Assembly (NCBI GenBank): GCA_035563535.1
Contig: DATMVD010000010.1
Coordinates: 186,222-250,221 of the forward strand
Reading direction: 5' to 3'
DNA: 64,000 nt
Source of the DNA: Pyrinomonadaceae bacterium
Lineage (GTDB): Bacteria > Acidobacteriota > Blastocatellia > Pyrinomonadales > Pyrinomonadaceae
Each line of letters begins with the position of its first letter. Position 1 is the first letter of the stretch. Below the pieces are notes generated by a model. The model worked only from the letters and a program-made list of their open reading frames with translations. It had not been told where the DNA came from and did no database searches. Below are positions 138-40,198 of the stretch, piece by piece. A program made the position numbers and the translations under genes.

Positions 138-1514
<1,377 letters not shown>

Positions 1515-2494: not shown

Positions 2495-4135
<1,641 letters not shown>

Positions 4136-4199
4136 TATAATTTTCCCGGGAGACTGGATCGGCTGGAAAATAACACAGCGCCCGACGACAAAACAATTG

Positions 4200-4345
4200 A
4201 ACGCCGGGGCGCGGGCATCCCTGCCCACCAAGAGCGCGCCGGCGCGAAGGCCGTGAGACTTTAAATCCAGGGTCGCGGGATGAAGCTTCACGGCTAGGCG
4301 TGCTCTCGCACGCTTTAGCGGGCAGGGATGCCCGCGCCCCCGGCT
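4200..4345. repeat. Long-range inverted repeat (23-bp arms CCGGGGCGCGGGCATCCCTGCCC / GGGCAGGGATGCCCGCGCCCCCGG) enclosing smaller hairpins
   Basis: Seen directly. The arms at 4200-4222 and 4322-4345 are reverse complements. An inner perfect hairpin GCGTGCTCTCGCACGC lies near 4300. Located in the divergent intergenic region between the carboxylase and HAD genes. Confidence 0.5.
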
Positions 4346-4477
4346 AAACTGTTGAAAACGCACGGCGGTTACAAAAACGGGTCGAAATAGGGTAAACTTT
4401 CCGCCCTGCAACAACTTTAAGCCGGAGCATTTGGGCCGCAGCAGTATTCCGACCCGTTTTGAGTTGGAGGACTCTTT

Positions 4478-5140
4478 TTGGCAGCCGCCGCTTTCTACGA
4501 CCTCGAAGGGACTCTGGTGAGCACGAACCTCGTGCACACGCTCGGCTTCTACGCGCGCAACCAGCAGGGGCTTCTGCGCTCCATCCAGAAGGGGGCCTCG
4601 ACCCTGGTGAGCATCCCCCTGTTCGCCGCGGCCGACGCCTACAGCCGCATGGTCTTCAACGACATCTTCTTCCGCCGCTACAAGGGGCAGTCGGAAGACC
4701 GCCTGCGCTTCTTCGCGCAGGACCTGTTCGAGGACGTTCTGAAGCCCGCCGTCTTCCCCGGCGCGAAGACGCTGATTCGGAAGTCGCGCAGCCTCGGGCT
4801 CCGGCAGGTCGTCGTCACCGGCGCGCTCGACTTCTCGGTCGCGCCCCTGATGGAGTACCTCGGCGTGGACGACTTCGTCGCCAACCGCCTTGAGTTCGTC
4901 AACGGCGTCGCCACGGGGCGGCTCCTCCCCCCCGTGCTCGCCTCCGCCACCAAGGCCTCCTGGATTCGCACCTACGCCGAGAAGCACGGCATCAACCTGA
5001 GCGACTCCTACGCCTACAGCGACAGCATGAGCGACCTGCCCATGCTCTCCATCGTCGGCCACCCGGCGGCCGTCAACCCGGACATGCGGCTCAAACAAAC
5101 GGCCATGCACCACGACTGGCCGATCCTGAACCTTAAGTAA
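4478..5140 (+). CDS. HAD-IB family hydrolase (phosphoserine-phosphatase-like)
   Basis: 220 aa with a TTG start 7 nt after GGAGG. N-terminal FYDLEGTLV is a DxDGT-like HAD motif I. SerB/HAD-IB-like throughout. Confidence 0.75.
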   Translation: MAAAAFYDLEGTLVSTNLVHTLGFYARNQQGLLRSIQKGASTLVSIPLFAAADAYSRMVFNDIFFRRYKGQSEDRLRFFAQDLFEDVLKPAVFPGAKTLIRKSRSLGLRQVVVTGALDFSVAPLMEYLGVDDFVANRLEFVNGVATGRLLPPVLASATKASWIRTYAEKHGINLSDSYAYSDSMSDLPMLSIVGHPAAVNPDMRLKQTAMHHDWPILNLK

Positions 5141-5166
5141 ATGGTAAATAGTAAATAGTGAATGGA
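5141..5166. repeat. Left inverted repeat flanking the four-helix-bundle gene (AT-rich variant of the family-A unit: GGTAAATAGTAAATAGTGAATGG)
   Basis: Matches in reverse complement the element at 5548-5578 (CCATTTACCATTTACTATTCACCATTTAC). Composition is AT-rich against the GC-rich background. Confidence 0.6.
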
Positions 5167-5178
5167 GGTTCTTTGACG

Positions 5179-5541
5179 ATGAGACCTCATGAAAAGCTGG
5201 AGGTGTGGAGTTCGGCAATGGATTTTGTTGTTGAGGTCTATCGTTCGACCGAGGCTTTCCCTAAAGAAGAGAAATTCGGATTGACTTCGCAGATACGGCG
5301 AGCAGCCGTCTCGGTTCCCGCGAACATCGCCGAGGGCGCGGCCCGGCAGTCGCCCAAAGTGTTCATGCACTTCTTATCCAACGCACAAGGGTCGGCCAGC
5401 GAGCCTGAAACTGAACTAACAATTGCATATCGGCTAGGGTATCTGGCGCAAGGCAGGTACTCCGAGTTGTCGGCGGCGGTCGATAAAATCGGCCGCATGC
5501 TCACCGGCCTTTCCCGACACCTGAAACGTAAAGCAACCTAG
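5179..5541 (+). CDS. Four-helix-bundle protein (TIGR02436 family; 23S rRNA intervening-sequence protein type)
   Basis: 120 aa from MRPHEKLEVW. GGAGG lies 10 nt upstream of ATG 5179; the track's alternative GTG is at 5158. Family similarity (EKxxVWxxAxxFxxxVY... NIAEGxxR). Flanked by inverted repeats. Confidence 0.75.
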   Translation: MRPHEKLEVWSSAMDFVVEVYRSTEAFPKEEKFGLTSQIRRAAVSVPANIAEGAARQSPKVFMHFLSNAQGSASEPETELTIAYRLGYLAQGRYSELSAAVDKIGRMLTGLSRHLKRKAT

Positions 5542-5547
5542 CTCTTT

Positions 5548-5578
5548 CCATTTACCATTTACTATTCACCATTTACTA
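5548..5578. repeat. Right inverted repeat flanking the four-helix-bundle gene
   Basis: Reverse-complement partner of 5141-5166. Lies between the 4HB stop (5541) and the larA-like start (5583). Confidence 0.6.
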
Positions 5579-5582
5579 AACC

Positions 5583-7181
<1,599 letters not shown>

Positions 7182-7220
7182 GTTGTGCGAGAATAGGCGG
7201 ACGTTCGGACATCCTCGCTA

Positions 7221-10200
7221 GTGACTATGAAATTTTCGCCCACAGAGACTTTTAACGGCCGGAACGTCTTCATCATCGGCGCGACGGGGTTCGTCGGGAA
7301 GGTGGCGCTCTCCATGCTGCTCGACCGCTTCCCCGGCATCGGGCGGGTCTACGTGACGGTGCGCGCGCGCGGGAAGGAAGAGTCCGAGGCCCGCTTCTGG
7401 AACAACGTCATCACCGCCCCGCCCTTCGACCCTCTGCGCGAGCGCTACGGCGCGGCCTTCGAGGACTTCATCCGCGACAAGGTCAGGCTCGTCAACGGCG
7501 ACATCAGCGAGGAGCGCCTCGGCTTCACCGAGGAGGAGGCCGAAGAGGTCGCCGGAGACATCGACGTGCTCGTCAACTCGGCGGGCAACGTCACCTTCAA
7601 CCCGCCCTTGGAGAGCGCGCTGCGCACCAACGTCGTCGGCACGCAGAACGTCATCAAGTTCGTCAAAAGGATGAAGCGCCCCGCGCTCGTCCACATCTCG
7701 ACCTGCTTCGTCGCGGGCAACCGTTCGGGGCCCGTCTGGGAGAGCGACCCCGTCCTCGGCTACTTCCCGCGCAAGGAGGAGCTGCCGGGCGTCGAGTTCA
7801 GCGCCGAGCAGGAGATACGCGACTGCGCGAAGCTGGCCGAGCGCGTCAGGGAGGAGGCGCGCGACGCCTTGCAGGCCGCGCGCTTCAGGGAGCTGGCGCG
7901 CAAGCGGCTCTACGAGGAGGGGCGCGACCCCGACGACCTCGACCAGATGGGGCTCGCCGTCGCGCGCGAGCGCAAGCTGTGGACGCGCGAGCGCCTGACC
8001 GAGCTGGGCACCGAGCGCGCCCTCTTCTGGGGCTGGCCCAACATCTACACCTACACCAAGAGCCTCGGCGAGCAGCTCGTCGCGGCCGAATCGGACATCG
8101 TCCGCTCCATCGTCCGCCCCTCCATCGTCGAGTCGGCGAAGGACTTCCCCTTCCCCGGCTGGAACGAGGGCTTCACGACGACCGCCCCCATCATCTTCAT
8201 CGCCCTCAAGGGGCAGCAGATGATTCCGGTCAACGACAAGCTCATCCTCGACATCACGCCGGTCGATCAGGTCGCCGCCGTCATGCTCGGCGCGGCGGCC
8301 GAGGCCATCGTGACCGACACGCCGCGGCTCGTCTACCAGGCCGCGACGGGCGACAGCAACCCGAACACGCTGGAGCGGATCGTCAACCTCGTCGGGCTCT
8401 ACAAGCGCAAGCACTTCCGGGAGAAGGAGACGGGCTTCCGGCTCCTCAACGAGCTGGCCGGGCGGATGGAGGCCAAGCCCGTCACCCCCGCGCGCTTCGA
8501 GGCGCTGTCCACGCCGATGGTCAACGCCGCGGCGAAGCGCGCCTCCTCGCTCCTCGACCGCGTGCGGCCGCGCTGGGGCGGCGGGAAGTTCACGCACCTC
8601 GTCGATCAGGCGAAGGCCACGGTCGAGCGCGTCGAGGCCGTGACGCGCGAGACCAAGGCGGCGTTCGAGCTCTTCCGCCCCTTCATGATCGAGAACGAGT
8701 ACATCTTCCGCGCCGACAACGTGCGGGCGCTCTTCGCCGAGGTGCCCGCGGACGAGCGGCGGCTGCTGCGCTGGGACCCGGAGGCGTTCGACTGGTACGA
8801 CTACATGATGAACGTCCACTTCCCCGGCCTCAAGAAGTGGGTCTTCCCGACGCTCGAAGAGGACATGCGCGCGCAGCCCCGCAGGGTCTACACCTACCGC
8901 GACCTGCTCGAACTCTTCGAGACCTCGGCCAAGCGCTACTCGACGCGCGTCGCCATGCGCATCGAGCGCGACGGGCAGAAGGAGCAGTACACCTACGCCG
9001 ACATACAGGAGCTTGCGACGCGCGCCGCCGCCTTCTTCGCTTCTCAAGGCGTGAAGCCCGCCGACCGCGTGCTGCTCGTCAGCCACAACGCGCCCGAGTG
9101 GGGCATCAGCTACTTCGGTGTCCTCAAGGCCGGCGCGACCTGCGTCCCCGTTGACCCCGAGAGCAAGACGGAAGAGCTCGTCAACTTCGTCCGCGCGAGC
9201 GGAGCCACCGGGCTCGTCCTCGGCGAGAAGGCCGACGATGAGCACGCCGACCTTCAGGAGAAGCTTCTCGAAGCGAGATTAGAGGCGCGCATCTGGCGCT
9301 ACGCGGAAGTCTTCGAGCTGACCGACGAACAGTCGGAAGACGAGCGCATCGCGCTCCTGCCGGCGAAGGTCTCGCCGAACGCGGTCGCGTCGCTCATCTT
9401 CACCTCCGGCACGACTGGGCAGCCGAAGGGCGTCATGCTCTCGCACAAGAACCTGACGAACATGGTCTCGATGCTCTCGTCGGTCTTCGAGATGGACACG
9501 GGCGACGGCATCCTCTCCGTGCTCCCGCTCTACCACACCTTCGAGTTCTCGACCGGCTTCCTCACGCCCTTCAGCCGCGGCACGCAGATAACGTACCTGG
9601 CCGACCTGAACGGCGAGGAACTCGCCCGCGCCATCAAGAACGGGCACGTCACGGGCATGGTCGGCGTCCCGGCGCTGTGGGAACTCCTGCACCGCCGCAT
9701 CATGAACCGCCTGCGCGAGCGCGGCGAGTGGGTCGGCAACGTCGCCGAGGCGCTCATCAAGTTCAACAGCCGCCTGCGCGACCGGACGCCCTTGAACCTC
9801 GGCTCGGTCATCTTCCGCCCCATCCACACCGGCCTGGGCGGGCAGATTCGCTACCTGATAAGCGGGGGCTCGGCGCTCAACGAGAAGGTGAAGCGCGACA
9901 TGCACGGCCTCGGGTTCACCATCCTCGAAGGCTACGGGCTGACCGAAGCCTCGCCCGTGCTAACCGTGACGCGCCCGCAGAACGCGCTCAACGCGGCGAG
10001 CGTCGGGCGGCCCCTGCCCGGCGTCGAGCTGCGCATCAGCGACCCGGACGCCAGCGGCATCGGCGAGGTCATCGCGCGCGGCCCCAACGTCATGCTCGGC
10101 TACTACCAGAACGAGCAGGCGACGCAGTCGGCCATCGTCTCGCGCTGGCTCCACACGGGCGACCTCGGCCGCATCGACGAGGACGGCAACCTCTACCTCG

Positions 10201-11660
10201 TCGGCCGCTCCAAGGAGATCATCGTCGATACGAACGGCAAGAACGTCTACCCCGACGAGATCGAGGAGCTCTACAAGGACTCGCCCTACGTCAAGGAGAT
10301 CGGCGTCGTGGGCCTGCCCGACGGCATCGGCGAGAAGGTCGCGGCGCTCGTCTTCCCCGACTACGACCACGACATCGCGCTTCAGCGCGACGAAGTCCAA
10401 CGCCGCGTCGAGAACCACTTCCGCGAAGTCTCCTCGACGCTCCCCTTCTACAAGCGGGTCAAGTCGCTCTACTTCGCCGAGGAGGAGCTGCCGCGCACGG
10501 CCACGCGCAAGGTGAAGCGGCGCGAAGTCGTCAGGCTCATCCAGTCGCTCGAAGAGTCGAAGCGCGCCGGCATCACCGAGAAGACCGCGCCGCGCGAGCA
10601 GCACCACGACGCCGACTGGCTGCTGGGGCTGGTCGCCAACGTCTCGTCGCGGCCGCGCGCGCAGGTCACTCTGGATTCGCGCCTCTCGGAACTCGGCTTC
10701 GACAGCCTGATGTTCGTCGAGCTGGCCTCGGCCATCGAGCAGGCGGGCGGCGCGCTCGTCTCGCCCGACACTTTGAACGAGGTGGTTGACGTGCGCGAGC
10801 TCTACTCGGTCGTCAAGCGGCGCGAGACGGCCGCCAACCGCCGCGCGGCTGAGGCGCGGGCCGAGGAGGACGCGCGAGAGTCGGAGAAGGAGATTTCCGT
10901 CCCCACGCTGCTGCGCTCGACCGGCAACCGCGTCATCGACGCGGCGCAGCGCGCGCTCTACGAGAACGTCCTCAAGGCGCACGTCGAGGGGCAGTCGAAC
11001 ATCCCGACGCACACCAACTTCATCTGCGCGACGAACCACACGTCGCACCTGGACACCGGTTTAATCAAGTACGCGCTCGGCGAGTACGGCCGCGACATGG
11101 TGGCGCTCGCGGCGGCCGACTACTTCTTCGACAACAAGTACAAGCGCGCCTACATGAACAACTTCACGAACATCGTGCCCATCGAGCGTTCGGGGAGCCT
11201 GCGGCAGTCGCTCCGGCACGCGCGCTCGTTCCTTGAGCGCGGCTACTCGGCGCTCATCTTCCCCGAGGGCACGCGCTCGATGACGGGGCAGATGGCGGAG
11301 TTCAAGTCGGGCTTCGCCTACCTCGCCTTGAACACGCGCACGGGCATCCTGCCCGCCTACCTCTGGGGCACGTACGAGGCTTTCCCGAAGGGCTCGACCT
11401 TCCTCAAGGGGCGCGAGGTCGGCGCGCGCATCGGCCGCTACCTCGACATCGAAGAGCTGGAGGGGCTGACGAAGGGCATGCCGCGCGCGGAAGCCTACCG
11501 CCTCGTCGCCGCGCTCGTCCGCCACGAGATCGAGAACCTCCGCGACGGCACGCGCCACGCCTTCGACGCCACGGCGCTGCGCCGCCGCTGGAAGGCCGAG
11601 CGCCGCCACGAGACCCCGGAGGCGCACGACGAGAGCGAGATGGCGACGACCGGCGATTAA
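7221..11660 (+). CDS. Four-domain lipid-metabolism enzyme. Domains in order: fatty acyl-CoA reductase (NAD-binding), AMP-dependent acyl ligase, phosphopantetheine carrier domain, and C-terminal PlsC/LPLAT acyltransferase.
   Basis: 1479 aa. Motifs seen: GATGFVG Rossmann and YTYTK (YxxxK) for the reductase; TSGTTGQPKG, GYGLTE, TGDLGR and PRTATRKVKR for the adenylation domain; LGFDSLMFVELA for the carrier Ser; NHTSHLD (HX4D) plus FPEGTRS for the acyltransferase. GTG start at 7221, with an alternative ATG at 7227. Confidence 0.85.
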   Translation: MTMKFSPTETFNGRNVFIIGATGFVGKVALSMLLDRFPGIGRVYVTVRARGKEESEARFWNNVITAPPFDPLRERYGAAFEDFIRDKVRLVNGDISEERLGFTEEEAEEVAGDIDVLVNSAGNVTFNPPLESALRTNVVGTQNVIKFVKRMKRPALVHISTCFVAGNRSGPVWESDPVLGYFPRKEELPGVEFSAEQEIRDCAKLAERVREEARDALQAARFRELARKRLYEEGRDPDDLDQMGLAVARERKLWTRERLTELGTERALFWGWPNIYTYTKSLGEQLVAAESDIVRSIVRPSIVESAKDFPFPGWNEGFTTTAPIIFIALKGQQMIPVNDKLILDITPVDQVAAVMLGAAAEAIVTDTPRLVYQAATGDSNPNTLERIVNLVGLYKRKHFREKETGFRLLNELAGRMEAKPVTPARFEALSTPMVNAAAKRASSLLDRVRPRWGGGKFTHLVDQAKATVERVEAVTRETKAAFELFRPFMIENEYIFRADNVRALFAEVPADERRLLRWDPEAFDWYDYMMNVHFPGLKKWVFPTLEEDMRAQPRRVYTYRDLLELFETSAKRYSTRVAMRIERDGQKEQYTYADIQELATRAAAFFASQGVKPADRVLLVSHNAPEWGISYFGVLKAGATCVPVDPESKTEELVNFVRASGATGLVLGEKADDEHADLQEKLLEARLEARIWRYAEVFELTDEQSEDERIALLPAKVSPNAVASLIFTSGTTGQPKGVMLSHKNLTNMVSMLSSVFEMDTGDGILSVLPLYHTFEFSTGFLTPFSRGTQITYLADLNGEELARAIKNGHVTGMVGVPALWELLHRRIMNRLRERGEWVGNVAEALIKFNSRLRDRTPLNLGSVIFRPIHTGLGGQIRYLISGGSALNEKVKRDMHGLGFTILEGYGLTEASPVLTVTRPQNALNAASVGRPLPGVELRISDPDASGIGEVIARGPNVMLGYYQNEQATQSAIVSRWLHTGDLGRIDEDGNLYLVGRSKEIIVDTNGKNVYPDEIEELYKDSPYVKEIGVVGLPDGIGEKVAALVFPDYDHDIALQRDEVQRRVENHFREVSSTLPFYKRVKSLYFAEEELPRTATRKVKRREVVRLIQSLEESKRAGITEKTAPREQHHDADWLLGLVANVSSRPRAQVTLDSRLSELGFDSLMFVELASAIEQAGGALVSPDTLNEVVDVRELYSVVKRRETAANRRAAEARAEEDARESEKEISVPTLLRSTGNRVIDAAQRALYENVLKAHVEGQSNIPTHTNFICATNHTSHLDTGLIKYALGEYGRDMVALAAADYFFDNKYKRAYMNNFTNIVPIERSGSLRQSLRHARSFLERGYSALIFPEGTRSMTGQMAEFKSGFAYLALNTRTGILPAYLWGTYEAFPKGSTFLKGREVGARIGRYLDIEELEGLTKGMPRAEAYRLVAALVRHEIENLRDGTRHAFDATALRRRWKAERRHETPEAHDESEMATTGD

Positions 11661-11678
11661 CCAAGACCCTCAAAGTTA

Positions 11679-12791
11679 ATGGCGACGACAAAGAAAACCG
11701 GCACAAAGAAGGCCGCGACGAAGACGAAGAAGGCCGACGCCGTCGCGCCCGAAAACACTTCCCTCACGAAGAGGGCGAAGCCGGTCACGCTCGTGACGGG
11801 CGGGACGGGTTTTCTGGGCTCGCACCTCGTGAGGCTTCTGGCCGAGGAGGGCGCGGGGTCGCTGCGCGTGCTTTCGACTTCGGCCCCGGCGTGGCTCGAA
11901 GAGCTGGGCGTGGAGACGGTCGTGGGCTCCATCACGTCGCCGGAGGACGTGCGGCGCGCGTGCGAGGGCGCGGGCGAGGTCTACCACCTCGCGGGGCGCG
12001 TCTCGCGCGAGCCGGGGGACGCGCACCTGATGTACGAGCTGCACGTGACGGGGACGCGCGTGCTGTGCGAGGCGGCCCTCCAGGCGGGCGTCAAGTCGAT
12101 CGTGATGGCCTCGACGAGCGGGACGGTGGCCGTCACCGAGGATGGCGGCGTGCTGCCCGACGAGGATTGGCCGACGCCTCTGGAGATCGTCTCGCGCTGG
12201 CCCTACTACGCGAGCAAGGTCTACCAGGAGCGCGCGGCGCTTGAGAGCTTCTCGGGGAAGGGGCGGCGGCTCGTCATCATGAACCCGTCGCTGCTGCTCG
12301 GCCCCGGCGACGAGCGCCTGAGTTCGACGAAGGTCGTGCTCGACTTCCTCGCGCGCAAGATTCCGACGGTGCCGAAGGGCGGGCTGAGTTTTGTTGACGC
12401 CCGCGACGCGGCCGCCAGCTTCCGCGCGGCGATGGAGCGCGGCGCGCACGGCGGGCGCTACCTTCTGGGTTCGGCCAACTGGACGTTCGACAAGTTCTTC
12501 GGCCGGCTGGAGCGCATCACGAAGGTTCCCGCGCCCTTCCTCTCGCTGCCGTCAAAGTTGACGCTCGCGGGCGCGCGCGGGCTAAGCTCACTCTACAAGC
12601 ACTGGAAGCTCGCGCCGCCCGTCGAGCCGGCCGAGATCGAGATGGCCGAATACTTCTGGTACCTCGACGCCTCGAAGGCGCACGCCGACCTCGGCTTCGA
12701 CCCGCGCGACCCGCAGGAGACTCTGCTCGACACCGTCACCTACGTCCGCGAAAACTTCCTCGGCAACGCCGCGTTTAAAACCGCCGGCTAA
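11679..12791 (+). CDS. NAD-dependent epimerase/dehydratase family protein (SDR-extended)
   Basis: 370 aa. Contains VTGGTGFLGSHLV Rossmann and a YASK motif. Starts 19 nt after the upstream stop and is probably co-transcribed with the four-domain enzyme. Confidence 0.8.
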   Translation: MATTKKTGTKKAATKTKKADAVAPENTSLTKRAKPVTLVTGGTGFLGSHLVRLLAEEGAGSLRVLSTSAPAWLEELGVETVVGSITSPEDVRRACEGAGEVYHLAGRVSREPGDAHLMYELHVTGTRVLCEAALQAGVKSIVMASTSGTVAVTEDGGVLPDEDWPTPLEIVSRWPYYASKVYQERAALESFSGKGRRLVIMNPSLLLGPGDERLSSTKVVLDFLARKIPTVPKGGLSFVDARDAAASFRAAMERGAHGGRYLLGSANWTFDKFFGRLERITKVPAPFLSLPSKLTLAGARGLSSLYKHWKLAPPVEPAEIEMAEYFWYLDASKAHADLGFDPRDPQETLLDTVTYVRENFLGNAAFKTAG

Positions 12792-12818
12792 ACAGTACCG
12801 CGAGCGGTTTGCGCGTGA
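12790..12818. repeat. Isolated half-arm of a family-D element (AACAGTACCGCGAGCGGT...)
   Basis: Matches the left arms at 48433 and 52197 but has no right-arm partner. Immediately followed by a family-C hairpin. Confidence 0.5.
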
Positions 12819-12831
12819 GCTTCCCTTCGTC

Positions 12832-12906
12832 CGTTTAGAGGCGGTCTCCGACCGCCGGCCCGAGTCACACCGCGGCACGCGGCGGGCACAGCCCGCCTCT
12901 AAACGG
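12832..12906. repeat. Family-C palindromic element (CGTTTAGAGGCGG...CCGCCTCTAAACGG)
   Basis: Inverted repeat seen directly. Sits between the convergent epimerase (+) and lipid kinase (-) genes. The same family occurs at 23979 and 26423. Confidence 0.75.
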
Positions 12907-12931
12907 GAGGTGAGTTGATACGCACACCGCT

Positions 12932-13870
12932 CTAGCACCTCACGCGCAACGCGCCCGGCAACAACTCGAACTCGGCGGGCAGGCGTCCGGCCAGCTCGCC
13001 GTCAACCTCTAATTTAACGACGGAGCCGTCGGCAGACTCGGCGCGGACGCGGCGGGCGTGTGCGTGGCGCACCTCCTGCATCCCGAGGTGCGTGCCGAGG
13101 TAGAGTTTGTATGAGTTGGCGAGCACGGTCAGCGCCGACACGTCGCCGACGGCGACCACGTCGAAGCGGCCGTCGTCCACCTTCGCGTCGGGCGCGATCT
13201 TCATCCCGCCGCCGAAGTAGCGCGCGTTGGCGACGCAGAAGTTGGCGACCGTCAGGTGCGTCTCCCTGCCTCCGTCGAGCGAGACGCGCACGCGAGGCTT
13301 CTCGAAGGTGGCGGCCGCCTGAAGGGCGGCGGCGGCGAAGGAGAGGCGGCCGCCGAGCAGTCGCGCGGCGCCCGCCGGCAGCCCCTCGCGCGACTTCACG
13401 CGCTTGATCACGTCGCCGCCCATGCCGAACGAGGCGACGTTGACGAAGAACCTCGACCCCTCCTCGCCCCGCTCGTTCGTGAACGTGACGCGCCCCGCGT
13501 CCATCACGCGCGTCGAGCCCTCGCGCAGAGCGCGCGCGGCGTCGGCTGCCCGCCGCGGGATGTCGAGCGTGCGCCGGAAGTCGCCGCCCGTCCCGCTCGG
13601 CAGGATGCCTAGTTCTGTTTCGGACTCCGCGCGCAGAATGCCATTCGCGACCTCGCTGATCGTGCCGTCGCCGCCGCAGGCGATGACGAACGGGCGGCCC
13701 GCGCGCGCCTCGCGCTCACCGATCTCGACGGCCTCGCCCGGCCTCTCGGTGAAGGCCGCCTCGAACGGGCCGAAGTGCTGCCGCACGGCGGAGGCCACGC
13801 CCGGCCAGGCCCTGCCCGTCGCGCCCGACGCCGACGCCGGGTTAACTATGATGAGTGGGAGCGAAGACAT
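12932..13870 (-). CDS. Diacylglycerol-kinase catalytic-domain lipid kinase (YegS/BmrU family)
   Basis: 312 aa with FVIACGGDGTISEVANG (GGDG motif). DAGK_cat-like. Confidence 0.8.
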   Translation of the reverse strand: MSSLPLIIVNPASASGATGRAWPGVASAVRQHFGPFEAAFTERPGEAVEIGEREARAGRPFVIACGGDGTISEVANGILRAESETELGILPSGTGGDFRRTLDIPRRAADAARALREGSTRVMDAGRVTFTNERGEEGSRFFVNVASFGMGGDVIKRVKSREGLPAGAARLLGGRLSFAAAALQAAATFEKPRVRVSLDGGRETHLTVANFCVANARYFGGGMKIAPDAKVDDGRFDVVAVGDVSALTVLANSYKLYLGTHLGMQEVRHAHARRVRAESADGSVVKLEVDGELAGRLPAEFELLPGALRVRC

Positions 13871-14759
13871 TTTCGACTGTCGGCTTTTGACTGAGGGCGA
13901 ACTGCGCGCGGTCTTGCTCGCCCAGCTCGGCGATCTTCGACATGACGAAGGCCGCTATCTCAAGGTAGGTGCGCGCCGAGTCGCGCCGCTCGTAGAAGTC
14001 GGAGAGGTCGATGGCCGGGCCGAAGCGCACGCGCACCGCCTCGCCCCCGCGCCAGTTCCCCAGCACCTGTTTCGGGAGGTCGTTGCCGAGCCCGGCGATG
14101 AAGACCGGGACGACCTGCGGGCGCGCGTCCTTAATCAGCTTGCCGACGCCGGGCTGCGGGCGGAGGTACGAGTACGGGTCGGAGCCCTTGTTGCGCGTGC
14201 CCTCGGGGTGGAAGCCGATGACGTTGCCCGCCCCCTCGCGGCACAGGTGCGCGAGGAGCCGCATCGAGAACCTGTCGAACTCGCGCTGCTCGGTCTTCGG
14301 GTTGTCGCCGCCCGCGAAGAAGGGCGGGAACATAGACCACCAGCCCATCAGGAGGTTGACGAGGAGGCCGCCGACCGTGTCGTAGAAGAAGCGCCCGCGC
14401 ACGGGGAAGAAGAGTTGCTTCCTCCACTTCGTCTTTCGGAAGAGCACGGTCGAGACGACGTACATGTCGAAGAACGAGCGGTGGTTGGCGACGAGCAGCA
14501 GCGGGCGCTCGCGCGAGACCGCCTCGACGTGTTCGAGCCCGCTCACTCTCATCAAATTGTAAGTCGAGACGTGAATCCAGCCCGCGCCGAGCGTCCGCTG
14601 GCAGAACGTCCAGAAGCGCTTCCAGGCCCCGCGGTTCATCCGCCATGTCAGGCGGAACGCGAACCGCTCGAACGGCGAGAGGACGGCCAACTCCTCGGCC
14701 GTCGGCACAGGGGCAGTCGTCTCCGCGGGGTTATCTGTCTCGGCGGTCGTTTCCATCAT
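13842..14759 (-). CDS. Lysophospholipid (1-acyl-glycerol-3-phosphate-type) acyltransferase, PlsC family. Start uncertain: MMETT at 14759 or the upstream M at 14801.
   Basis: Has HRSFFD (HX4D) and FHPEGTRN motifs. Its 3' end overlaps the lipid kinase start by 29 nt. Confidence 0.7.
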   Translation of the reverse strand: MMETTAETDNPAETTAPVPTAEELAVLSPFERFAFRLTWRMNRGAWKRFWTFCQRTLGAGWIHVSTYNLMRVSGLEHVEAVSRERPLLLVANHRSFFDMYVVSTVLFRKTKWRKQLFFPVRGRFFYDTVGGLLVNLLMGWWSMFPPFFAGGDNPKTEQREFDRFSMRLLAHLCREGAGNVIGFHPEGTRNKGSDPYSYLRPQPGVGKLIKDARPQVVPVFIAGLGNDLPKQVLGNWRGGEAVRVRFGPAIDLSDFYERRDSARTYLEIAAFVMSKIAELGEQDRAQFALSQKPTVENVFAPTHHS

Positions 14760-14814
14760 CGGCGAAGGATCAAAGTTAATCGACCGGGCGGAGTCGCGCA
14801 AGCGGGAACAGACA

Positions 14815-14905
14815 GGTCAGAACCACCCGCAGTAGCGGGTGGCCCTGTGCTAACCGAACGTGCCGGGTAACGAAGGGCCACCCGCTACCGCGGGTGGTTC
14901 TGACC
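14815..14905. repeat. Family-E palindromic element (GGTCAGAACCACCCGCAGTAGCGGGTGGCCC ... GGGCCACCCGCTACCGCGGGTGGTTCTGACC)
   Basis: 31-bp arms, each itself containing an internal palindrome. Lies between the metH stop and the acyltransferase start on the same strand. Confidence 0.8.
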
Positions 14906-14917
14906 GCTATAACGTCG

Positions 14918-17900
14918 TCAGTCTATCGAGAAATATTTCGCCTCCTCGTGGTGGACGATGATGGCGGAGGTGGACTGCTCGGGGACGAGCTGGAACTCTT
15001 CCGAAAGCTCGACACCGATGCGCTCGGGTTGGAGCAGCTCGAAGAGCTTGGTCTGGTCTTCGAGGTCGGGGCAGGCCGGGTAGCCGAAGCTGAAGCGCGA
15101 GCCCTGGTAGCCCTGGTGGAAGAGTTTCGCGAGTTCGGCGGCGTCGCGGCCGGCGATGCCGAGTTCTTCGCGGACGTGCTTGTGCCAGAGTTCGGCGAGC
15201 GCCTCGGCCGCCTCGACCGAGAGGCCGTGGAAGTAGAGGTAGTCGGAGTAGTTGTCCGTGCGAAACAGCTCGTGCGCGTACTCCGACGCGCGGCGGCCGA
15301 CCGTGACGAGCTGGAAGGCGACCACGTCCACGCGCCCCGACTCCTTCGAGGCGAAGAAGTCCGCGAGGCACAGCCGGCGGCCCCCGGGCTGGCGCGGGAA
15401 GGTGAAGCGCGTGCGCTCCGTGCGCCCGTCGTCGTGGTAGACGACGAGGTCGTTGCCTTCGGACTGGCAGGGGAAGTAGCCGTAAGTCACCTGCGGGACG
15501 AGCAGGTTCTCGCGCTCCGTTTGGAGCTTCAACTCGTCGTAGACGGGGCGCACCTTCTCCGCGACGAAGGCGCGGTACTCTTCCGCCGTCTTGCGCCCCT
15601 GCTTGAACTGCCACTGCCCCTTGAAGAGCGCCGTCTCGTTGACGAACCTGAAGACTCTTTCGAGCGGGACGTGCTCGACGACGCGCGAGCCGTAGAAGGG
15701 CGCGGTCGGAATCGGCGCGTTCGGGTTCACGTCCGAGCGCTCCGTGTGCGAGGCGGCCTCGCGCGACTTGAGCACGCCCCGAGGCCGCGCCCGCGCCGCA
15801 CGCACGCCGAGCTTCGCGTCCTCGCCGACAAGCTCCTCCGCGTCGTCGGACTCCGCATTGGTCGAGCCGTTCCCCGCCCCGGCCGCGGCCTTCGCCGCCT
15901 TCGGCGCGCCTTCGGCGTGCGCGCCCGAGCCGGTCAGCAAGTCCATCGTGTGCAGGCCGTCGAAGGCGTCGCGCGCGTAGAAGAGGCGGCCCTGGTAGAG
16001 CGACTCCAAGTCCTCCTCGACGTAACGCCGGGTCAGGGCCGCGCCGCCGAGCACGACGGGGACGTTGATGCCGCGCTCGTTCATCAGCTCAAGGTTCTCG
16101 CGCATGATGAGCGTGGACTTGACCAGCAGGCCGGACATGCCGATGGCGTCGGCCTTGTGCTCCTCGGACGACTGGAGGATGGCCTCGATGGGCTGCTTGA
16201 TGCCGAGGTTGACGACCTTGTAGCCGTTGTTCGTCAGGATGATGTCCACGAGGTTCTTGCCGATGTCGTGCACGTCGCCCTTGACCGTGGCGAGCACCAT
16301 CGTCCCCTTCGCCGTCGCGCCGCCCTTCTTCTCCATGAACGGTTCGAGGAAGCGCACCGCCGCCTTCATCACCTCGGCCGACTGCAAGACGAACGGCAAC
16401 TGCATCTGCCCGCTGCCGAAGAGTTCGCCGACCACCTTCATGCCGTCGAGCAGGATGTTGTTGATGATGTCGAGCGCGCTGTAGCTCTGGAGCGCGAGCT
16501 TGAGGTTGTCTTCGAGCCCTATCTTCTCGCCGTCGATGATGTGCTGCTTGAGGCGCTCCTCGACGGGCAGGTTGTCGTCAACCTTGTGCTCCTTCTTCGC
16601 CTTGACGCCCTCGAAGAGCTTCGTGAACTCTGCGAGCGGGTCGTAGGTGCACACGTCGCCCTCGAACTTCCGCTCGTCGTAGATGAGTTGGCGCGCCACC
16701 TCGCGCTCGCGCTCGGGGATGCGGTTGAGCGGGACGATCTTCGAGGCGTTGACGATGGCCGAGTCGAGCCCCGCCTCGACGGCCTCGTGCAGGAAGACGG
16801 AGTTGAGGACGACGCGCGAGGCGGCGTTCAGGCCGAACGAGATGTTCGAGACGCCGAGGATGGTGTAGCAGCCGGGCAGCTCCGACTTTATCCTCCGCAG
16901 CGCCTCGACGGTCTCGGCGGCGTTGCGGCGGTCTTCCTCGATGCCGGTCGAGATGGGCAGCGCCAGCGGGTCGAAGAAGATGTCGTGCGCCGGGAACCCG
17001 AGTTCCTTCGTCGCCTGCTCGTAGGCGCGCTTCGCCATCCTGAGCTTGCCCTCGGCCGTGCGCGCCATGCCCTCCTCGTCGATGGTTCCGACGACGACGG
17101 CCGCGCCGTACTCCTGAGCGAGCCCGACGACTTTCTTGAAGCGCGGCTCGCCGTCCTCGTAGTTCGTCGAGTTGAGGATCGACTTGCCGCCCGCGTGCTG
17201 GAGGCCGGCCTCCATCTTCTCCCACTCGGTCGAGTCGAACATGAGCGGGATGCGCACCTGCGTGACGAGGCGGGAGGCCAGCTCGTGCATGTCGCGGACG
17301 CCGTCGCGGCCGACGAAGTCCACGTTCACGTCGAGGACGTGCGCGCCCTCGCGCTCCTGCTCGCGCGCGAGCGAGACGAGGCCGTCCCAGTCCTCGGCGT
17401 TCAATAGGTCGCGCATCTTCTTCGAGCCCGAGGCGTTGACCCGCTCGCCGACGATGAGGAACGAGGCGTCCTGCACGTAGGGCTGCTGGACGTAGATGGA
17501 CGAGGCCGCGGGGAGCACCGAACCCCGGCGCCGCTTCGGCGTGAGGTTGCCGAGCCTTTCGACCAGCAGCCCGATGTGCGCGGGCGTCGTGCCGCAGCAG
17601 CCGCCGACGACGCTGGCGCCGAAGTCTTTCGCGAAGTGCTCGACCTGCGCGGCGAAACTCTCGGGCGTCTCATCGTAGTGCATCTTGCCGTCTTTAACTT
17701 CCGGCAGGCCGGCGTTCGGCAGCACGGAGACGGGCAGGCGCGCGTTCTCGCAGAGGTAGCGCAGGCTCTCGGTCATGTTGCGCGGCCCCGTGCCGCAGTT
17801 CATGCCGATGACGTCAATCGGGAAGGGCTCGAGCGCGGTGAGCGCGGCGCTGATCTCAGTGCCGGGCAGCATCGTGCCCCACGGCTCAATCGTCACCTGC

Positions 17901-18466
17901 GCGAAGACGGGCACGCGCGCGCCTCGGCGCTTGAACTCCTCGAAGATGGCCGCGAGCGTCGCCTTCGTCTGGAGCAAGTCCTGGCAGGTCTCGACGACGA
18001 GCAGGTCGCAGCCGCCGTCGAGCAGGCCGCGCGCCTGTACGGCGTAAGCCTCCTTCACCTGCCGGTAGGTGACGTGGCCGAGCGTGGGCGACTTCGTCCC
18101 CGGCCCCATCGAGCCGGCGACCCAGCGCGGGCGCTCGCGTGTCGAGAAGTCCGAGGCGATGCGTTTGGCGAGTTGCGCGGCCTTGACGTTGAGGTCGTAG
18201 GCCATGTGGCCGATGCCGTACTCGTCGAGGACGTAGGGGATGCCGCCGAACGAGTCGGTCTCGACCACGTCGCAGCCGGCCTCGAAGAAGTCCGCGTGGA
18301 CGCGCTCGACCGCCTCGGGCTTGCTGACGAGCAGGTACTCGGGGCAGCCCTCGAACTGCGCCCCGCCGTAGTCGTCCACCGACAGGTTCTGCACCTGTAA
18401 GTTCGTGCCCATCGCGCCGTCGAAGATGATGACGCGCTCGTTTAAGGTCTTCAGAAAATCGCTCAT
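14918..18466 (-). CDS. metH: Cobalamin-dependent methionine synthase
   Basis: 1182 aa from MSDFLKTLNERVIIFDGAMGT. Homocysteine-binding, pterin-binding, B12-binding (DVHDIGKN = DxHxxG) and AdoMet-activation domains are all present. The track ORF's extra 25 N-terminal residues were rejected. Confidence 0.9.
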   Translation of the reverse strand: MSDFLKTLNERVIIFDGAMGTNLQVQNLSVDDYGGAQFEGCPEYLLVSKPEAVERVHADFFEAGCDVVETDSFGGIPYVLDEYGIGHMAYDLNVKAAQLAKRIASDFSTRERPRWVAGSMGPGTKSPTLGHVTYRQVKEAYAVQARGLLDGGCDLLVVETCQDLLQTKATLAAIFEEFKRRGARVPVFAQVTIEPWGTMLPGTEISAALTALEPFPIDVIGMNCGTGPRNMTESLRYLCENARLPVSVLPNAGLPEVKDGKMHYDETPESFAAQVEHFAKDFGASVVGGCCGTTPAHIGLLVERLGNLTPKRRRGSVLPAASSIYVQQPYVQDASFLIVGERVNASGSKKMRDLLNAEDWDGLVSLAREQEREGAHVLDVNVDFVGRDGVRDMHELASRLVTQVRIPLMFDSTEWEKMEAGLQHAGGKSILNSTNYEDGEPRFKKVVGLAQEYGAAVVVGTIDEEGMARTAEGKLRMAKRAYEQATKELGFPAHDIFFDPLALPISTGIEEDRRNAAETVEALRRIKSELPGCYTILGVSNISFGLNAASRVVLNSVFLHEAVEAGLDSAIVNASKIVPLNRIPEREREVARQLIYDERKFEGDVCTYDPLAEFTKLFEGVKAKKEHKVDDNLPVEERLKQHIIDGEKIGLEDNLKLALQSYSALDIINNILLDGMKVVGELFGSGQMQLPFVLQSAEVMKAAVRFLEPFMEKKGGATAKGTMVLATVKGDVHDIGKNLVDIILTNNGYKVVNLGIKQPIEAILQSSEEHKADAIGMSGLLVKSTLIMRENLELMNERGINVPVVLGGAALTRRYVEEDLESLYQGRLFYARDAFDGLHTMDLLTGSGAHAEGAPKAAKAAAGAGNGSTNAESDDAEELVGEDAKLGVRAARARPRGVLKSREAASHTERSDVNPNAPIPTAPFYGSRVVEHVPLERVFRFVNETALFKGQWQFKQGRKTAEEYRAFVAEKVRPVYDELKLQTERENLLVPQVTYGYFPCQSEGNDLVVYHDDGRTERTRFTFPRQPGGRRLCLADFFASKESGRVDVVAFQLVTVGRRASEYAHELFRTDNYSDYLYFHGLSVEAAEALAELWHKHVREELGIAGRDAAELAKLFHQGYQGSRFSFGYPACPDLEDQTKLFELLQPERIGVELSEEFQLVPEQSTSAIIVHHEEAKYFSID

Positions 18467-18505
18467 CGGGTTCAGCCTTTCCGCCTGCGCGCTTCCCTCG
18501 CAAAG

Positions 18506-18541
18506 AGAAACCCCGCGCCGAACAACGCGGGGCTCACTCAC
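18506..18541 (-). terminator. Terminator/attenuator-like hairpin in the metH leader (GCCCCGCGUUGUUCGGCGCGGGG followed by UUUCUCUUU on the transcribed strand), about 40 nt upstream of the metH start
   Basis: GC stem CCCCGCG/CGCGGGG seen at 18518-18540 on the plus strand, followed on the minus strand by a U-rich run. Confidence 0.4.
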
Positions 18542-19418: not shown

Positions 19419-19913
19419 ATGCGACGCGCCATCTACCCCGGCTCCTTCGACCCCGTGACGAACGGCCACCTCGACATCATCGAGCGCGGCTCGAAGCTCT
19501 TCGACGAGATCATCATCGCCGTCCTCGTCAACCCGGAGAAGCGCGCGCTCTTCACGGTCGAGGAGCGGCGCGAGATGCTTGAAGAGGTCTTAAAGCTCGT
19601 CGAGTCGGGCGGCTGCCGCCTGCGCGTCGGCTCGTTCCAGGGCCTTCTGATGCGCTACGCCGTCGAGCAGCAGGCGCACGCCGTCGTGCGCGGCATCCGC
19701 GCCATCTCGGACTACGAGTACGAGTTGCAGATGGCTTTGATGAACCGGCGGCAGGAGCCCGCCATCGAGACCGTCTTCATGCTCGCGGCCGAGTCGTACT
19801 CGTACGTCAGCTCGCGCCTCGTCAAAGAGGTCTACTCGCTCGGCGGCACCATCGAGGGCTTAGTCCCCGCCGCCGTCGAGGAGCGCATGCGCGTCAAGCT
19901 CGGCAAAAAGTGA
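19419..19913 (+). CDS. coaD: Phosphopantetheine adenylyltransferase
   Basis: 164 aa with the PGSFDPVTNGHLDII motif. Similar to CoaD over its full length. Confidence 0.9.
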   Translation: MRRAIYPGSFDPVTNGHLDIIERGSKLFDEIIIAVLVNPEKRALFTVEERREMLEEVLKLVESGGCRLRVGSFQGLLMRYAVEQQAHAVVRGIRAISDYEYELQMALMNRRQEPAIETVFMLAAESYSYVSSRLVKEVYSLGGTIEGLVPAAVEERMRVKLGKK

Positions 19914-20505: not shown

Positions 20506-21717
20506 ATGACAGAGACCGCAGTCAAAATCCCCTTCCCCGTCTCGCCGAACGTCGCGCGGATGCAGCCCTCCTCGACTCTGGCCGCGATGCAGGCGGCCAT
20601 CGCCCTGCGCCACGAGGGGCACGACGTGGTGGACTTCGGCCCCGGCGAGCCCGACTTCGACACGCCCGCGCACATCAAGGAGGCCGCCGCCCGCGCCATG
20701 CGCGACGGCCAGACCAAGTACACGCCGACGGGCGGGACGAAGAAGTTTCAGGAGTCGGTCGCCGCCTACTACGAGCGCGAGTTCGGCGCGCGGGTCAACC
20801 CCTCGGAGGTGACGGCGACCGCGGGCGGCAAGCAGGGCATCTTCAACGCCGTCGTCACGCTCTGCGGCCCCGGCGACGACGTGCTCATCCCGAAGCCCTA
20901 CTGGGTGACCTTCCCCGAGATCGCCACCTTCGCCGGCGCGCGCCCCGTCTTCGTTGAGACCGAGGAGACCGGCTTCCAACTGACGGCCGAGCAGGTCGAG
21001 GCGGCCATCACGCCGAACACCAGGCTCATCATCATCAACTCGCCCTCGAACCCCTCGGGGCGCGTCATCCCGCCCGCCGAGTTCGAGCGCATCCTGCGCG
21101 TCGCCGCCGAGCGCGGCGTCTACGCCGTCTCGGACGAGTGTTACTTAAAATTCGTCTACGAGCCGGCCGAGGTCTTCAGCGCGGCGACGCTCGACCGGAG
21201 CTTGCGCGAGCGGCTCTGCATCGCGGGCTCCTTCTCGAAGACCTACGCGATGACGGGCTGGCGCATCGGCTACACCATCGCGCCCGCCGAATGGACGCGC
21301 GAGATGGGGAAGGTGCAGAGCCACTCGACCAGCAACCCCAGCTCCATCTCGCAGGCCGCGGCCGTCGCCGCCTTCGAGTCGTCGCAGGAATGCGTCGGCG
21401 AGATGCTGGCCGAGTACCGCCGCCGCCGCGACTGGCTCATTGGCGCCATCGAAGAGATTCCCGGGCTGGGGTGCGCGACGCCCGAGGGAGCCTTCTACGT
21501 CTTCCCCTGCGTGCGCGGCTGCCTGGGCGGCGAGCTGAAGACCTCGGCCGACTTCGCCGACCGCCTCCTGCGCGAGGCGCACACCGTCGTCACCGACGGC
21601 GCGGGCTTCGGCTCCGAAGGCTACGTCCGCGTCTCCTACGCTACCTCGATGGAGAGGTTAGAGGAGGGCATCCGCCGCATCCGCCGGGTCGCGGAGAAGT
21701 ACGCGGAAGGAAAGTAG
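20506..21717 (+). CDS. Pyridoxal-phosphate-dependent aminotransferase class I (aspartate/aromatic aminotransferase type)
   Basis: 403 aa. Contains NSPSNPSG and SFSKTYAMTGWRIGY (PLP lysine). Confidence 0.85.
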   Translation: MTETAVKIPFPVSPNVARMQPSSTLAAMQAAIALRHEGHDVVDFGPGEPDFDTPAHIKEAAARAMRDGQTKYTPTGGTKKFQESVAAYYEREFGARVNPSEVTATAGGKQGIFNAVVTLCGPGDDVLIPKPYWVTFPEIATFAGARPVFVETEETGFQLTAEQVEAAITPNTRLIIINSPSNPSGRVIPPAEFERILRVAAERGVYAVSDECYLKFVYEPAEVFSAATLDRSLRERLCIAGSFSKTYAMTGWRIGYTIAPAEWTREMGKVQSHSTSNPSSISQAAAVAAFESSQECVGEMLAEYRRRRDWLIGAIEEIPGLGCATPEGAFYVFPCVRGCLGGELKTSADFADRLLREAHTVVTDGAGFGSEGYVRVSYATSMERLEEGIRRIRRVAEKYAEGK

Positions 21718-23209: not shown

Positions 23210-23211
23210 CA

Positions 23212-23820
23212 CTAACTCTTGCCGCCCGCCCCGAGCGGCAGCTCTTCGCCCACGCCCAGGGCGGCGCGCAGCTTCTCGACCGAGCGGAACAGGGACTTCT
23301 TGACCGTGCCCGCCGAGCAGTTCAAAGCCTCGGCGATCTCCTGGCTCGTCATCCCCTCTCGATGCTTGAGGAGGAAGATGAGCCGCTGCTGCTCGGTCAG
23401 CTCGCCGAGCGCGCGCATGACGCGCCCGGCCATGATCCGGTTGTGATAACCGTCCTCGGCCCTTTCGTCGGCCAACCCCCGCGCGAGCGTCTGCTCTTCG
23501 AGGAGTTCTTCGAGGCTGTCGAGCTTGACCCTGGTCTTCACCTCGTCCCGCGTTACCTCCTGCGCCCGCCTGTGGTTGAGAAAAGCGTTGACCATGATCC
23601 GCCGCAGCCACGTGTGGAAGCTCGACTCGAAGCGGAACCCTTTGAGCGAGCGGAACGCCTTGAGCCAGACCTCCTGCGAGAGGTCTTCGGCGTCCTCGGG
23701 CCGCCGGCAGTAGTGGAGCGCCAGCGCGTAGACGCGCCGCTCGTACTCTCGCGCGAGTCGGCAGAAGGCTTCGAGGTCGCCGCCCTGCGCGCGCCGGATC
23801 AGTTCGTTCTCGCTGGTCAA
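23212..23820 (-). CDS. ECF (sigma-70 family) RNA polymerase sigma factor
   Basis: 202 aa with a TTG start. Region 2 (DLSQEVWLKAF) and region 4 HTH (MTSQEIAEALNCSAGTVKKSL) are present. Confidence 0.85.
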   Translation of the reverse strand: MTSENELIRRAQGGDLEAFCRLAREYERRVYALALHYCRRPEDAEDLSQEVWLKAFRSLKGFRFESSFHTWLRRIMVNAFLNHRRAQEVTRDEVKTRVKLDSLEELLEEQTLARGLADERAEDGYHNRIMAGRVMRALGELTEQQRLIFLLKHREGMTSQEIAEALNCSAGTVKKSLFRSVEKLRAALGVGEELPLGAGGKS

Positions 23821-33840: not shown

Positions 33841-34028
33841 TGTTAACGCCTGAACACCGCGGCCGGCACGTTGAAAACTCTCGGCTCCCTCCGAGCCATC
33901 GGCCTCGGCGCTGTCCGTCGTTGTTATACGAAAAAACCGTCAGAAGGTTGCGGGGCGGCCCGACACTCCGGCGAGGGCGGCCGCCCCCGGAAACGTCGGG
34001 CGACGCATCATACATCCAGGAGGCGTAA

Positions 34029-34135
34029 GCCGTAAACCGTAAACCGTGACGGGAGCGTAAACCGCGAACCGTAAACCGTGACAAGAGAAAGGCGACTTGC
34101 CTTCTTCCTGTCACGGTTTACGGTTCACGGTTTAC
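34029..34135. repeat. Family-A palindromic element
   Basis: GCCGTAAACCGTAAACCGTGAC...CGTAAACCGTGACAAG loop CCTGTCACGGTTTACGGTTCACGGTTTAC. Ends 5 nt before the stop of the OMP gene. Confidence 0.75.
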
Positions 34136-40011: not shown

Positions 40012-40198
40012 GGGCTCGGCCGCTGTTGACTTGGCGGCCGGTCCTGGCTTAGCTTCTTAGCCCTCTTGCCCGTGGGCTGAAGTCCCCGCGCCCGTGCTCC
40101 CCGAGCGCGCTGGCAGTTTCAGTCTCTCGAATGCACCACCATCTGACAGGCCCCGGATGAGTCCTTACCGGGCCTTGACCCGCTTCAGAGGAGTCTAC

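Follow-up and report, generated by a model that had tools for sequence, protein, structure and literature searches.

The DNA analysed here, which we call the window, is a 64,000-nucleotide stretch from an uncultured Pyrinomonadaceae bacterium (GenBank assembly GCA_035563535.1, contig DATMVD010000010.1, positions 186,222 to 250,221 of the forward strand), a member of Blastocatellia, or Acidobacteriota subdivision 4. Its gene at 7221..11660 (+) encodes a four-domain enzyme that we identify, from its sequence and surroundings, as an ortholog of ElbD, the multidomain protein of the myxobacterial ether-lipid (elb) cluster. Placed within an elbB-elbC-elbD-elbE cluster, this ortholog very probably provides the glycerol ether lipids of subdivision 4 with their 1-O-alkyl (ether) chain. 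The cluster is already known, and the window contributes to the catalogue a further copy, from an uncultured member of Pyrinomonadaceae: the whole elb operon has been reported in subdivision 4 genomes, in studies that describe the link between elb homologs and ether formation as not yet proven (PMC10087280; PMC11868695; bioRxiv 10.64898/2026.06.23.733905). What the window offers is a clean example of elbBCDE, with all four genes present and a lipid kinase and an acyltransferase attached.

The elbD gene and its orthologs

The open reading frame (ORF) at 7221..11660 has GC fractions of 0.65, 0.43 and 0.95 at codon positions 1, 2 and 3, and the contrast between 0.95 at the third position and 0.43 at the second is what is expected in a genome of 68% GC (the window itself is at ~68%), so we take it to be a genuine gene. 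The 1479 residues reported in the first-pass annotation, which was made from the letters alone, stand in the mechanical ORF list, where translation begins at GTG 7221; public calls for a 100% identical database protein, labelled 'AMP-binding protein [Pyrinomonadaceae bacterium]', start instead at ATG 7227 and give 1477. Pfam recovers NAD_binding_4, Sterile, AMP-binding, AMP-binding_C, PP-binding and Acyltransferase in that order, which bears out the sequence of reductase, AMP-ligase, carrier and PlsC that the annotation had described. The profile search it had proposed (NAD_binding_4, AMP-binding, PP-binding and Acyltransferase) was run and retrieved the reductase and the acyltransferase, and each motif it had quoted was located at a single position in the translation. 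The gene and its domains are as follows.

7221..11660, plus strand: elbD ortholog, four-domain enzyme (1479 aa from GTG 7221 or 1477 aa from ATG 7227)
7275..8285, plus strand: domain 1, fatty-acyl reductase (FAR) Rossmann domain, NAD_binding_4 (aa 19-355; Pfam E 1.6e-52)
8628..8846, plus strand: FAR C-terminal 'Sterile' domain, PF03015 (aa 470-542; E 2.3e-09; 37.7 bits, cutoff 35.4)
8916..10511, plus strand: domain 2, adenylating acyl ligase, AMP-binding plus AMP-binding_C (Pfam)
10614..10805, plus strand: domain 3, phosphopantetheine carrier, PP-binding (aa 1132-1195; Pfam E 3.3e-10)
10977..11363, plus strand: domain 4, PlsC/AGPAT-type acyltransferase (aa 1253-1381; Pfam E 7.6e-23)

The reductase carries GATGFVG at residues 20-26 and YTYTK at 276-280, with Y276 and K280 as the catalytic pair, and the N-terminus finds its best Protein Data Bank match in a fatty acyl-CoA reductase (7eoz, E 2.2e-50). 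A Rossmann GxxGxxG, a YxxxK and a FAR C-terminal domain are all present, the features of the predicted alcohol-forming FAR family. In the ligase, the Pfam matches to AMP-binding (aa 566-962, E 3.3e-81) and AMP-binding_C (aa 1013-1097, E 1.8e-08) are accompanied by TSGTTGQPKG (728-737, A3), GYGLTE (904-909, A5), TGDLGR (979-984, of which 979-981 is A7) and PRTATRK (1091-1097, A10). Among the 60 best solved relatives of this domain and its best NCBIfam models, which are CoA ligases, none bears the name FAAL; by these closest relatives the domain seems nearer to fatty acyl-CoA ligases than to FAALs. The predicted attachment residue of the carrier is Ser1162, in the GFDSL of the motif LGFDSLMF. 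The acyltransferase has motifs I-III as NHTSHLD (1272-1278), PIER (1320-1323) and FPEGTR (1347-1352); its sole meaningful solved relative is Thermotoga maritima PlsC (5kym, E 3.1e-16), the one further matching chain (E 0.083) being unrelated.

As comparator we used the locus of Myxococcus stipitatus, in which a short-chain dehydrogenase/reductase (SDR), a HAD protein, a Lar_N protein, the four-domain protein and a second SDR correspond to elbABCDE. Its ElbD, P0354, was reached by a representative-library search followed by a second homology search from the representative P0149, which is itself nearest to Planctomycetota sequences. ElbD of the window aligns collinearly with P0354 along 1457 aa (identity 47%, positives 63%), and a reverse tblastn search with the M. 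stipitatus protein finds 7221-11660 as its only match in the window. The flanking proteins have counterparts as well: ElbC is 61% identical over 520 aa, ElbE 50% over 319 aa and ElbB 50% over 217 of 221 aa (tblastn, at 4487-5137), and all four genes of the window lie on the plus strand in the same order as in Myxococcus. In M. xanthus, whose elbABCDE genes are MXAN_1531 to MXAN_1527 (MIBiG BGC0000871), ElbD has an N-terminal FAR1-like domain followed by acyl-CoA synthetase (ACS), acyl carrier protein (ACP) and AGPAT-like acyltransferase domains (PMC9131029, 2022 review); elbC, described as of unknown function, lies upstream, elbE, an NAD-dependent epimerase/dehydratase, lies downstream, and elbB encodes a HAD phosphohydrolase (PMC9131029).

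The window shares with that operon both the FAR-ACS-ACP-acyltransferase order and the elbB, elbC and elbE orthologs in matching order and strand. ElbD was the only comparable architecture that the first-pass annotation named, and the end-to-end identity and the flanking orthologs bear out the comparison; the domain order, of which it was unsure, is identical in M. xanthus (PMC9131029). The two loci do differ. The window has no elbA: M. stipitatus ElbA matches only the elbE region, and weakly (33% over 187 aa). In M. xanthus, ElbA is dispensable and uninvolved in ether-lipid synthesis (PMC9131029). The window also has a 23S-rRNA-IVP/four-helix-bundle gene between elbB and elbC (5158-5541), a spacing of 18 nt between elbD and elbE where the Myxococcus genes overlap, a Lys/Thr-rich N-terminal tail on ElbE that the Myxococcus protein lacks, and a convergent lipid kinase with a second acyltransferase attached to the cluster. 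By architecture, full-length homology, motifs and operon context, all read from the sequence, 7221-11660 is an ElbD ortholog, a case of membership and not of mere resemblance. These data establish what the domains are, that their catalytic motifs are intact, and that the gene is orthologous to its myxobacterial counterpart in a locus syntenic with the myxobacterial cluster.

An alignment of 16 homologs (31-83% identity; named members from Acidobacteriota, Myxococcota, Planctomycetota and Binataceae) shows how closely the active sites have been kept. Invariant throughout are G20, T22, G23, G26, Y276 and K280 of the reductase; the A3, A5 and A7 motifs of the ligase, the A10 lysine being the exception; D1161 and S1162 of the carrier; and N1272, H1273, D1278, P1348, E1349, G1350 and R1352 of the acyltransferase. 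This invariance of catalytic residues suggests that all four ElbD activities are under selection. Among the 150 best representatives at 50% identity, 61 are 1350-1750 aa long, and most of those cover most of a 1200-residue query; on the strength of such homology searches, the four-domain ElbD architecture is widespread.

Within Blastocatellia, we compared 80 (69-94% identity) of the 328 related loci that a genome scan gave, which are labelled Pyrinomonadaceae, Blastocatellia, Chloracidobacterium, or unclassified Acidobacteriota or bacterium. The LarA-like gene, elbD and the SDR gene occur together in all of the 80 with enough flank, and an elbB homolog is found in 63. The order HAD-Lar_N-ElbD-SDR recurs on one Anaeromyxobacteraceae contig and on two further metagenomic contigs. 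Two four-domain ElbD-like genes of Planctomycetota (L082, 8001-12356; L087, 6001-10785) have no adjoining elbB, elbC or elbE. The idea that the cluster always accompanies ElbD-like genes was rejected on these two solitary homologs, which indicate that the accessory genes are not universally linked to the architecture.

Proposed function and alternative explanations

The functional assignment draws on genetics in M. xanthus, where most alkyl and vinyl ether lipids disappear when elbD is lost, inactivation of elbE lowers ether lipids in a way that extra elbD does not rescue, and the AGPS route is minor (PMC9131029). It also fits the host. Pyrinomonas methylaliphatogenes, the type species of the family, has >40% glycerol-ether and membrane-spanning lipids, and the ether lipids of subdivision 4 have been reported as alkyl ethers (PMC4644332). 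The view in the first-pass annotation that such chemistry is poorly described in this lineage must yield to that record and to the elb homologs already reported.

The scheme below is inferred throughout, from each chemical step and its substrates to what ElbB, ElbC, ElbE, the kinase and the second acyltransferase contribute. The adenylation domain would convert a free long-chain fatty acid, probably iso-branched, to acyl-AMP, and the acyl group would then be loaded as a thioester onto the phosphopantetheine arm of the in-cis carrier at Ser1162. With NADPH, the FAR1-type reductase would turn part of the tethered acyl chains into the aldehyde or alcohol that becomes the ether-linked chain, and the PlsC-type acyltransferase would move other tethered chains, as esters, to an acceptor at the glycerol-phosphate level. 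Because its sole solved relative is a lysophosphatidate acyltransferase, acylation at sn-2 of a 1-alkyl or 1-acyl glycerol phosphate is slightly more likely than acylation of dihydroxyacetone phosphate (DHAP). Partner proteins, namely ElbE, which is genetically required in M. xanthus, and possibly ElbC and ElbB, would join the reduced chain to the backbone and adjust the redox state of C2; ElbE, a 3-beta-HSD/HpnA-like extended SDR, is a plausible keto/hydroxyl oxidoreductase for that position. ElbB would act as a phosphatase, and the YegS-type kinase and second acyltransferase could interconvert or acylate alkylglycerol-type intermediates and feed them into phospholipid synthesis. No assigned activity in the cluster accounts for the ether-forming step.

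Several points weigh against assigning this function to the window's gene. Work on M. xanthus has not itself settled how ElbD operates biochemically (PMC9131029), and the order of steps proposed above is our reconstruction. The comparator was the M. stipitatus ortholog and not the mutated M. xanthus DK1622 protein, and an elb loss-of-function phenotype is known only for M. xanthus and Stigmatella, for no acidobacterium. Pontiella strains carry an elbD homolog, yet no ether lipids were detected in them (PMC11868695). Finally, no AGPS, FAD_binding_4 or FAD-oxidase domain was found in the scanned genes of the 64-kb window, although such a gene could be located in another part of the genome.

The first-pass annotation had described the locus as one for ether lipids, fatty alcohols or wax esters. 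Orthology with ElbD and synteny with elb uphold the ether-lipid part, and nothing specific supports wax esters or free fatty alcohol. If the enzyme served to make fatty alcohols or wax esters, its ligase, carrier and reductase would release free fatty alcohol and its acyltransferase would esterify that alcohol into wax esters or storage lipids, with no ether bond being made. The combination of FAR and Sterile domains does belong to the alcohol-forming reductase family, and this was an option that the annotation had named, but the acyltransferase is of the PlsC/AGPAT type, with glycerolipid motifs I-III, and is not a WS/DGAT wax synthase. With the locus orthologous and syntenic to elb, whose disruption removes M. 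xanthus ether lipids, and with a host family characterised by ether lipids (PMC4644332), we consider a wax-ester role very unlikely.

A second possibility is membrane repair of the Aas kind, in which lysophospholipids would be re-acylated with recycled fatty acids and the reductase would be accessory or unrelated. The NCBIfam model PRK08633 (acyl-[ACP]--phospholipid O-acyltransferase, Aas) does match ElbD at 229.9 bits, and the acyltransferase is closest to a lysophosphatidate acyltransferase. However, that score lies far under the family cutoff of 1221 and covers the ligase part only; Aas has neither a reductase nor an in-cis carrier domain; the reductase motifs of ElbD are invariant across its family, which argues that the domain is under selection; and the genetics of the ortholog indicate ether lipids (PMC9131029). 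There is correspondingly little chance that ElbD serves this purpose.

The least probable reading of all is a loading enzyme of a secondary-metabolite pathway, resembling those of nonribosomal peptide synthetases (NRPS) and polyketide synthases (PKS) in its adenylation, thiolation and reductase logic: the ligase also matches TIGR01733 at 181.5 bits and gramicidin synthase structures at E ~1e-39, and sponge studies detected elb-like clusters through antiSMASH/MIBiG, but the best ligase matches are fatty acyl-CoA ligases, condensation, ketosynthase and thioesterase domains are absent, the neighbours are glycerolipid enzymes, and the MIBiG entry resembled is the ether-lipid elb cluster itself (bioRxiv 10.64898/2026.06.23.733905). 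Wax-ester synthase, Aas-type repair enzyme and NRPS-like loader were all rejected on domain type, scores and elb orthology.

ElbC and its possible part in ether-bond formation

ElbC is a testable candidate for the chemistry by which aerobic bacteria form the ether bond without AGPS. It is the best-conserved protein of the cluster, 61% identical between Acidobacteriota and Myxococcus as against 47-50% for ElbD, ElbE and ElbB, with 75-97% identity within Blastocatellia, and in every full cluster found its gene directly precedes elbD. This slot is the one that AGPS takes in a parallel M. xanthus operon, AGPS-FARAT-SDR.

ElbC scores 816.9 bits against NCBIfam NF052592 ('NPN-dependent hydroxyacid isomerase, LarAH14/15/16 family', NPN being the nickel-pincer nucleotide cofactor), above the equivalog cutoff of 740, which places it in the LarA superfamily of nickel-pincer enzymes. 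The same model gives 817-849 bits for the ElbC proteins of the window, M. stipitatus, Anaeromyxobacteraceae and the two other contigs, the genes outside the window being at 8382-9992 (L081), 6391-8004 (L083), 4393-5991 (L086) and 893-2491 (L088). The best solved relatives of ElbC are the single-histidine LarA homologs 9q2u and 9q3j (E 5.5e-35). Aligned to LarA_Sp (9q2u), its His130 corresponds to the catalytic histidine, its Lys205 to the cofactor-linking lysine and its His220/221 to the nickel-binding histidine; its Asp88 falls at the ribose-binding aspartate.

The second catalytic histidine (His174 of Lactiplantibacillus plantarum LarA) has no counterpart in ElbC: the aligned segment before Lys205, NFNFVPMN, contains no histidine, and the phmmer alignment has a deletion opposite Asn185 of LarA_Sp. 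LarAH groups 14 and 15 have been described as being without this residue, and ElbC agrees with that description. Two-base racemisation needs the second histidine, so its absence suggests that ElbC is probably not a racemase. Of proteins that bear the names of these groups, LarAH14 from Frankia was inactive on the hydroxy acids tested, and a protein called LarAH15, from Phytophthora (P. nicotianae), is a gluconate/mannonate 2-epimerase.

We can envision that ElbC would carry out the backbone step still to be accounted for when ether bonds form aerobically and independently of AGPS, by transiently abstracting hydride from the glycerol C2 hydroxyl to give a DHAP-like intermediate. We offer this as a speculative and unlikely proposal. 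One argument against it is that elbD alone partly rescues an M. xanthus elbB insertion presumed to be polar (PMC9131029); another comes from the window itself, where no larB, larC or larE was found among the scanned genes of the 64 kb. If the proposal were true, aerobic bacterial ether-lipid synthesis would depend on nickel and the NPN cofactor. Acidobacterial ether-linked lipids are the presumed precursors of branched glycerol dialkyl glycerol tetraethers (GDGTs), which serve as palaeotemperature and pH proxies, and under the same proposal the ether bonds of these precursors could possibly be nickel- and NPN-dependent too.

Genomic surroundings and known systems

The genes around elbD in the window are these.

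4478..5140, plus strand: elbB ortholog, HAD-IB phosphohydrolase, 220 aa, TTG start (Pfam HAD E 2.2e-33)
5158-5541, plus strand: 23S rRNA IVP/four-helix-bundle gene (PF05635, bAvd-like), between elbB and elbC
5583..7181, plus strand: elbC ortholog, LarA-like protein of the LarAH14/15/16 family, 532 aa (Pfam Lar_N E 8.8e-34)
11679..12791, plus strand: elbE ortholog, extended SDR (3-beta-HSD/HpnA-like), 370 aa (Pfam Epimerase E 7e-29, 3Beta_HSD E 2e-17)
12932..13870, minus strand: convergent YegS/DAG-kinase-type lipid kinase (Pfam DAGK_cat E 1.6e-26, YegS_C E 1.1e-34)
13842..14801, minus strand: second PlsC-type acyltransferase (Pfam Acyltransferase E 1e-12; HRSFFD and HPEGTR motifs)

The LarA-like protein, SDR, lipid kinase and second PlsC that the first-pass annotation had listed beside the gene are all real by Pfam; elbB, at 4478-5140, was overlooked. 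Its product scores 123.5 bits against the HAD-IB model TIGR01490 (cutoff 98.3), and the gene is hidden under a 907-aa antisense ORF at 2495..5218 (-), so that longest-ORF calling would miss it. That ORF was rejected as one gene, its carboxyltransferase domain being confined to residues 401-887 and the real gene to about 2495-4060. A second PF05635 gene, at 5011-5337 of L087, stands just upstream of the unrelated Planctomycetota ElbD-like gene, possibly by coincidence.

ElbE begins with a Lys/Thr-rich tail of 36 aa (11679-11786, plus strand; MATTKKTGTKKAATKTKKADAV...), which 41 Blastocatellia loci keep from residue 1 onward; the length of 370 aa agrees with the public gene call. The tail may be membrane- or lipid-binding. 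The lipid kinase reaches 154.3 bits against TIGR00147 (cutoff 118.65). The gene for the second acyltransferase, for which the public call is 305 aa (about 13842-14759), overlaps the kinase gene by 29 nt, and a sequence search of solved structures with its product gave nothing significant, the only two matches having E values of 0.5-1. Both genes come next to the cluster in most Blastocatellia loci and are shifted or absent in some; the kinase, linked in this way to most of these clusters, lies outside the myxobacterial elb operon. A preprint on sponge symbionts describes DAG kinases and glycerol-3-phosphate acyltransferases adjoining elb-like clusters (bioRxiv 10.64898/2026.06.23.733905).

Divergent from the cluster, and upstream of it, are an AtuA-family gene at 138-1514 (-), whose position is kept only in the closest relatives, and the acyl-CoA carboxyltransferase gene (MmdA/PccB-like) at 2495-4060 (-); it is conceivable that the two are tied to branched-chain (iso) acyl-CoA metabolism. 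On the other side are housekeeping genes for the cobalamin-dependent methionine synthase MetH (14918-18541, -), the pantetheine-phosphate adenylyltransferase CoaD (19419-19913, +) and a class I/II aminotransferase (20506-21717, +), an order kept in most Blastocatellia loci. A promoter and terminator scan of 5100-15000 found sites no more often than in shuffled sequence and was uninformative. Farther along the window, an ECF-type sigma factor gene overlaps a long TonB_C ORF within 21827-23820 (-), an overlap that implies that one of the two start codons is wrong. A 1071-aa protein at 30899-34114 (-) has a C-terminal SPFH/Band-7 domain as its sole recognised domain, and a 548-aa protein at 40094-41740 (+) has a weak PAP2 (lipid phosphatase) domain. 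A FecR/DUF6600 protein is encoded at 41956-44373 (+) and a second TonB_C protein at 56142-57512 (-).

Among known systems, the anaerobic PlsA/PlsR (Ger) route has in common with ElbD a class of product, the bacterial glycerol ether lipids. It reaches that product with unrelated proteins, an oxygen-sensitive reductase/activase, whose domains were absent from the window genes scanned. Carboxylic acid reductases and NRPS-like adenylation-thiolation-reductase enzymes share the chemistry of adenylation, a phosphopantetheine tether and thioester reduction by an NAD_binding_4 domain; ElbD, by contrast, begins with its reductase, a FAR1-type one with a Sterile domain, and carries an appended glycerolipid acyltransferase. 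Aas combines an ANL-type domain that activates fatty acids with a PlsC-type acyltransferase, the acyl group being passed on through a carrier-protein thioester. ElbD resembles it in all three respects and differs in having an in-cis carrier and a reductase, as well as in its score far below the Aas model cutoff.

The nearest parallel in layout is the FARAT/AGPS pathway (MXAN_1676-1675-1674, with eukaryotic FAR1, GNPAT, AGPS and acyl/alkyl-DHAP reductase as its counterparts). FARAT, like ElbD, is a single polypeptide with a FAR at the N-terminus and a glycerolipid acyltransferase at the C-terminus; its gene is likewise followed by an SDR gene, and the layout implies that one fatty acyl chain is reduced and another esterified. 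The ElbD acyltransferase, unlike that of the FARAT/AGPS pathway, is nearest PlsC, and the gene upstream encodes a LarA-like protein and not AGPS. ElbD also has an acyl ligase and a carrier inserted between the FAR and the acyltransferase, an addition from which we predict that the enzyme can take free fatty acid as its starting material and act on the thioester while it is tethered.

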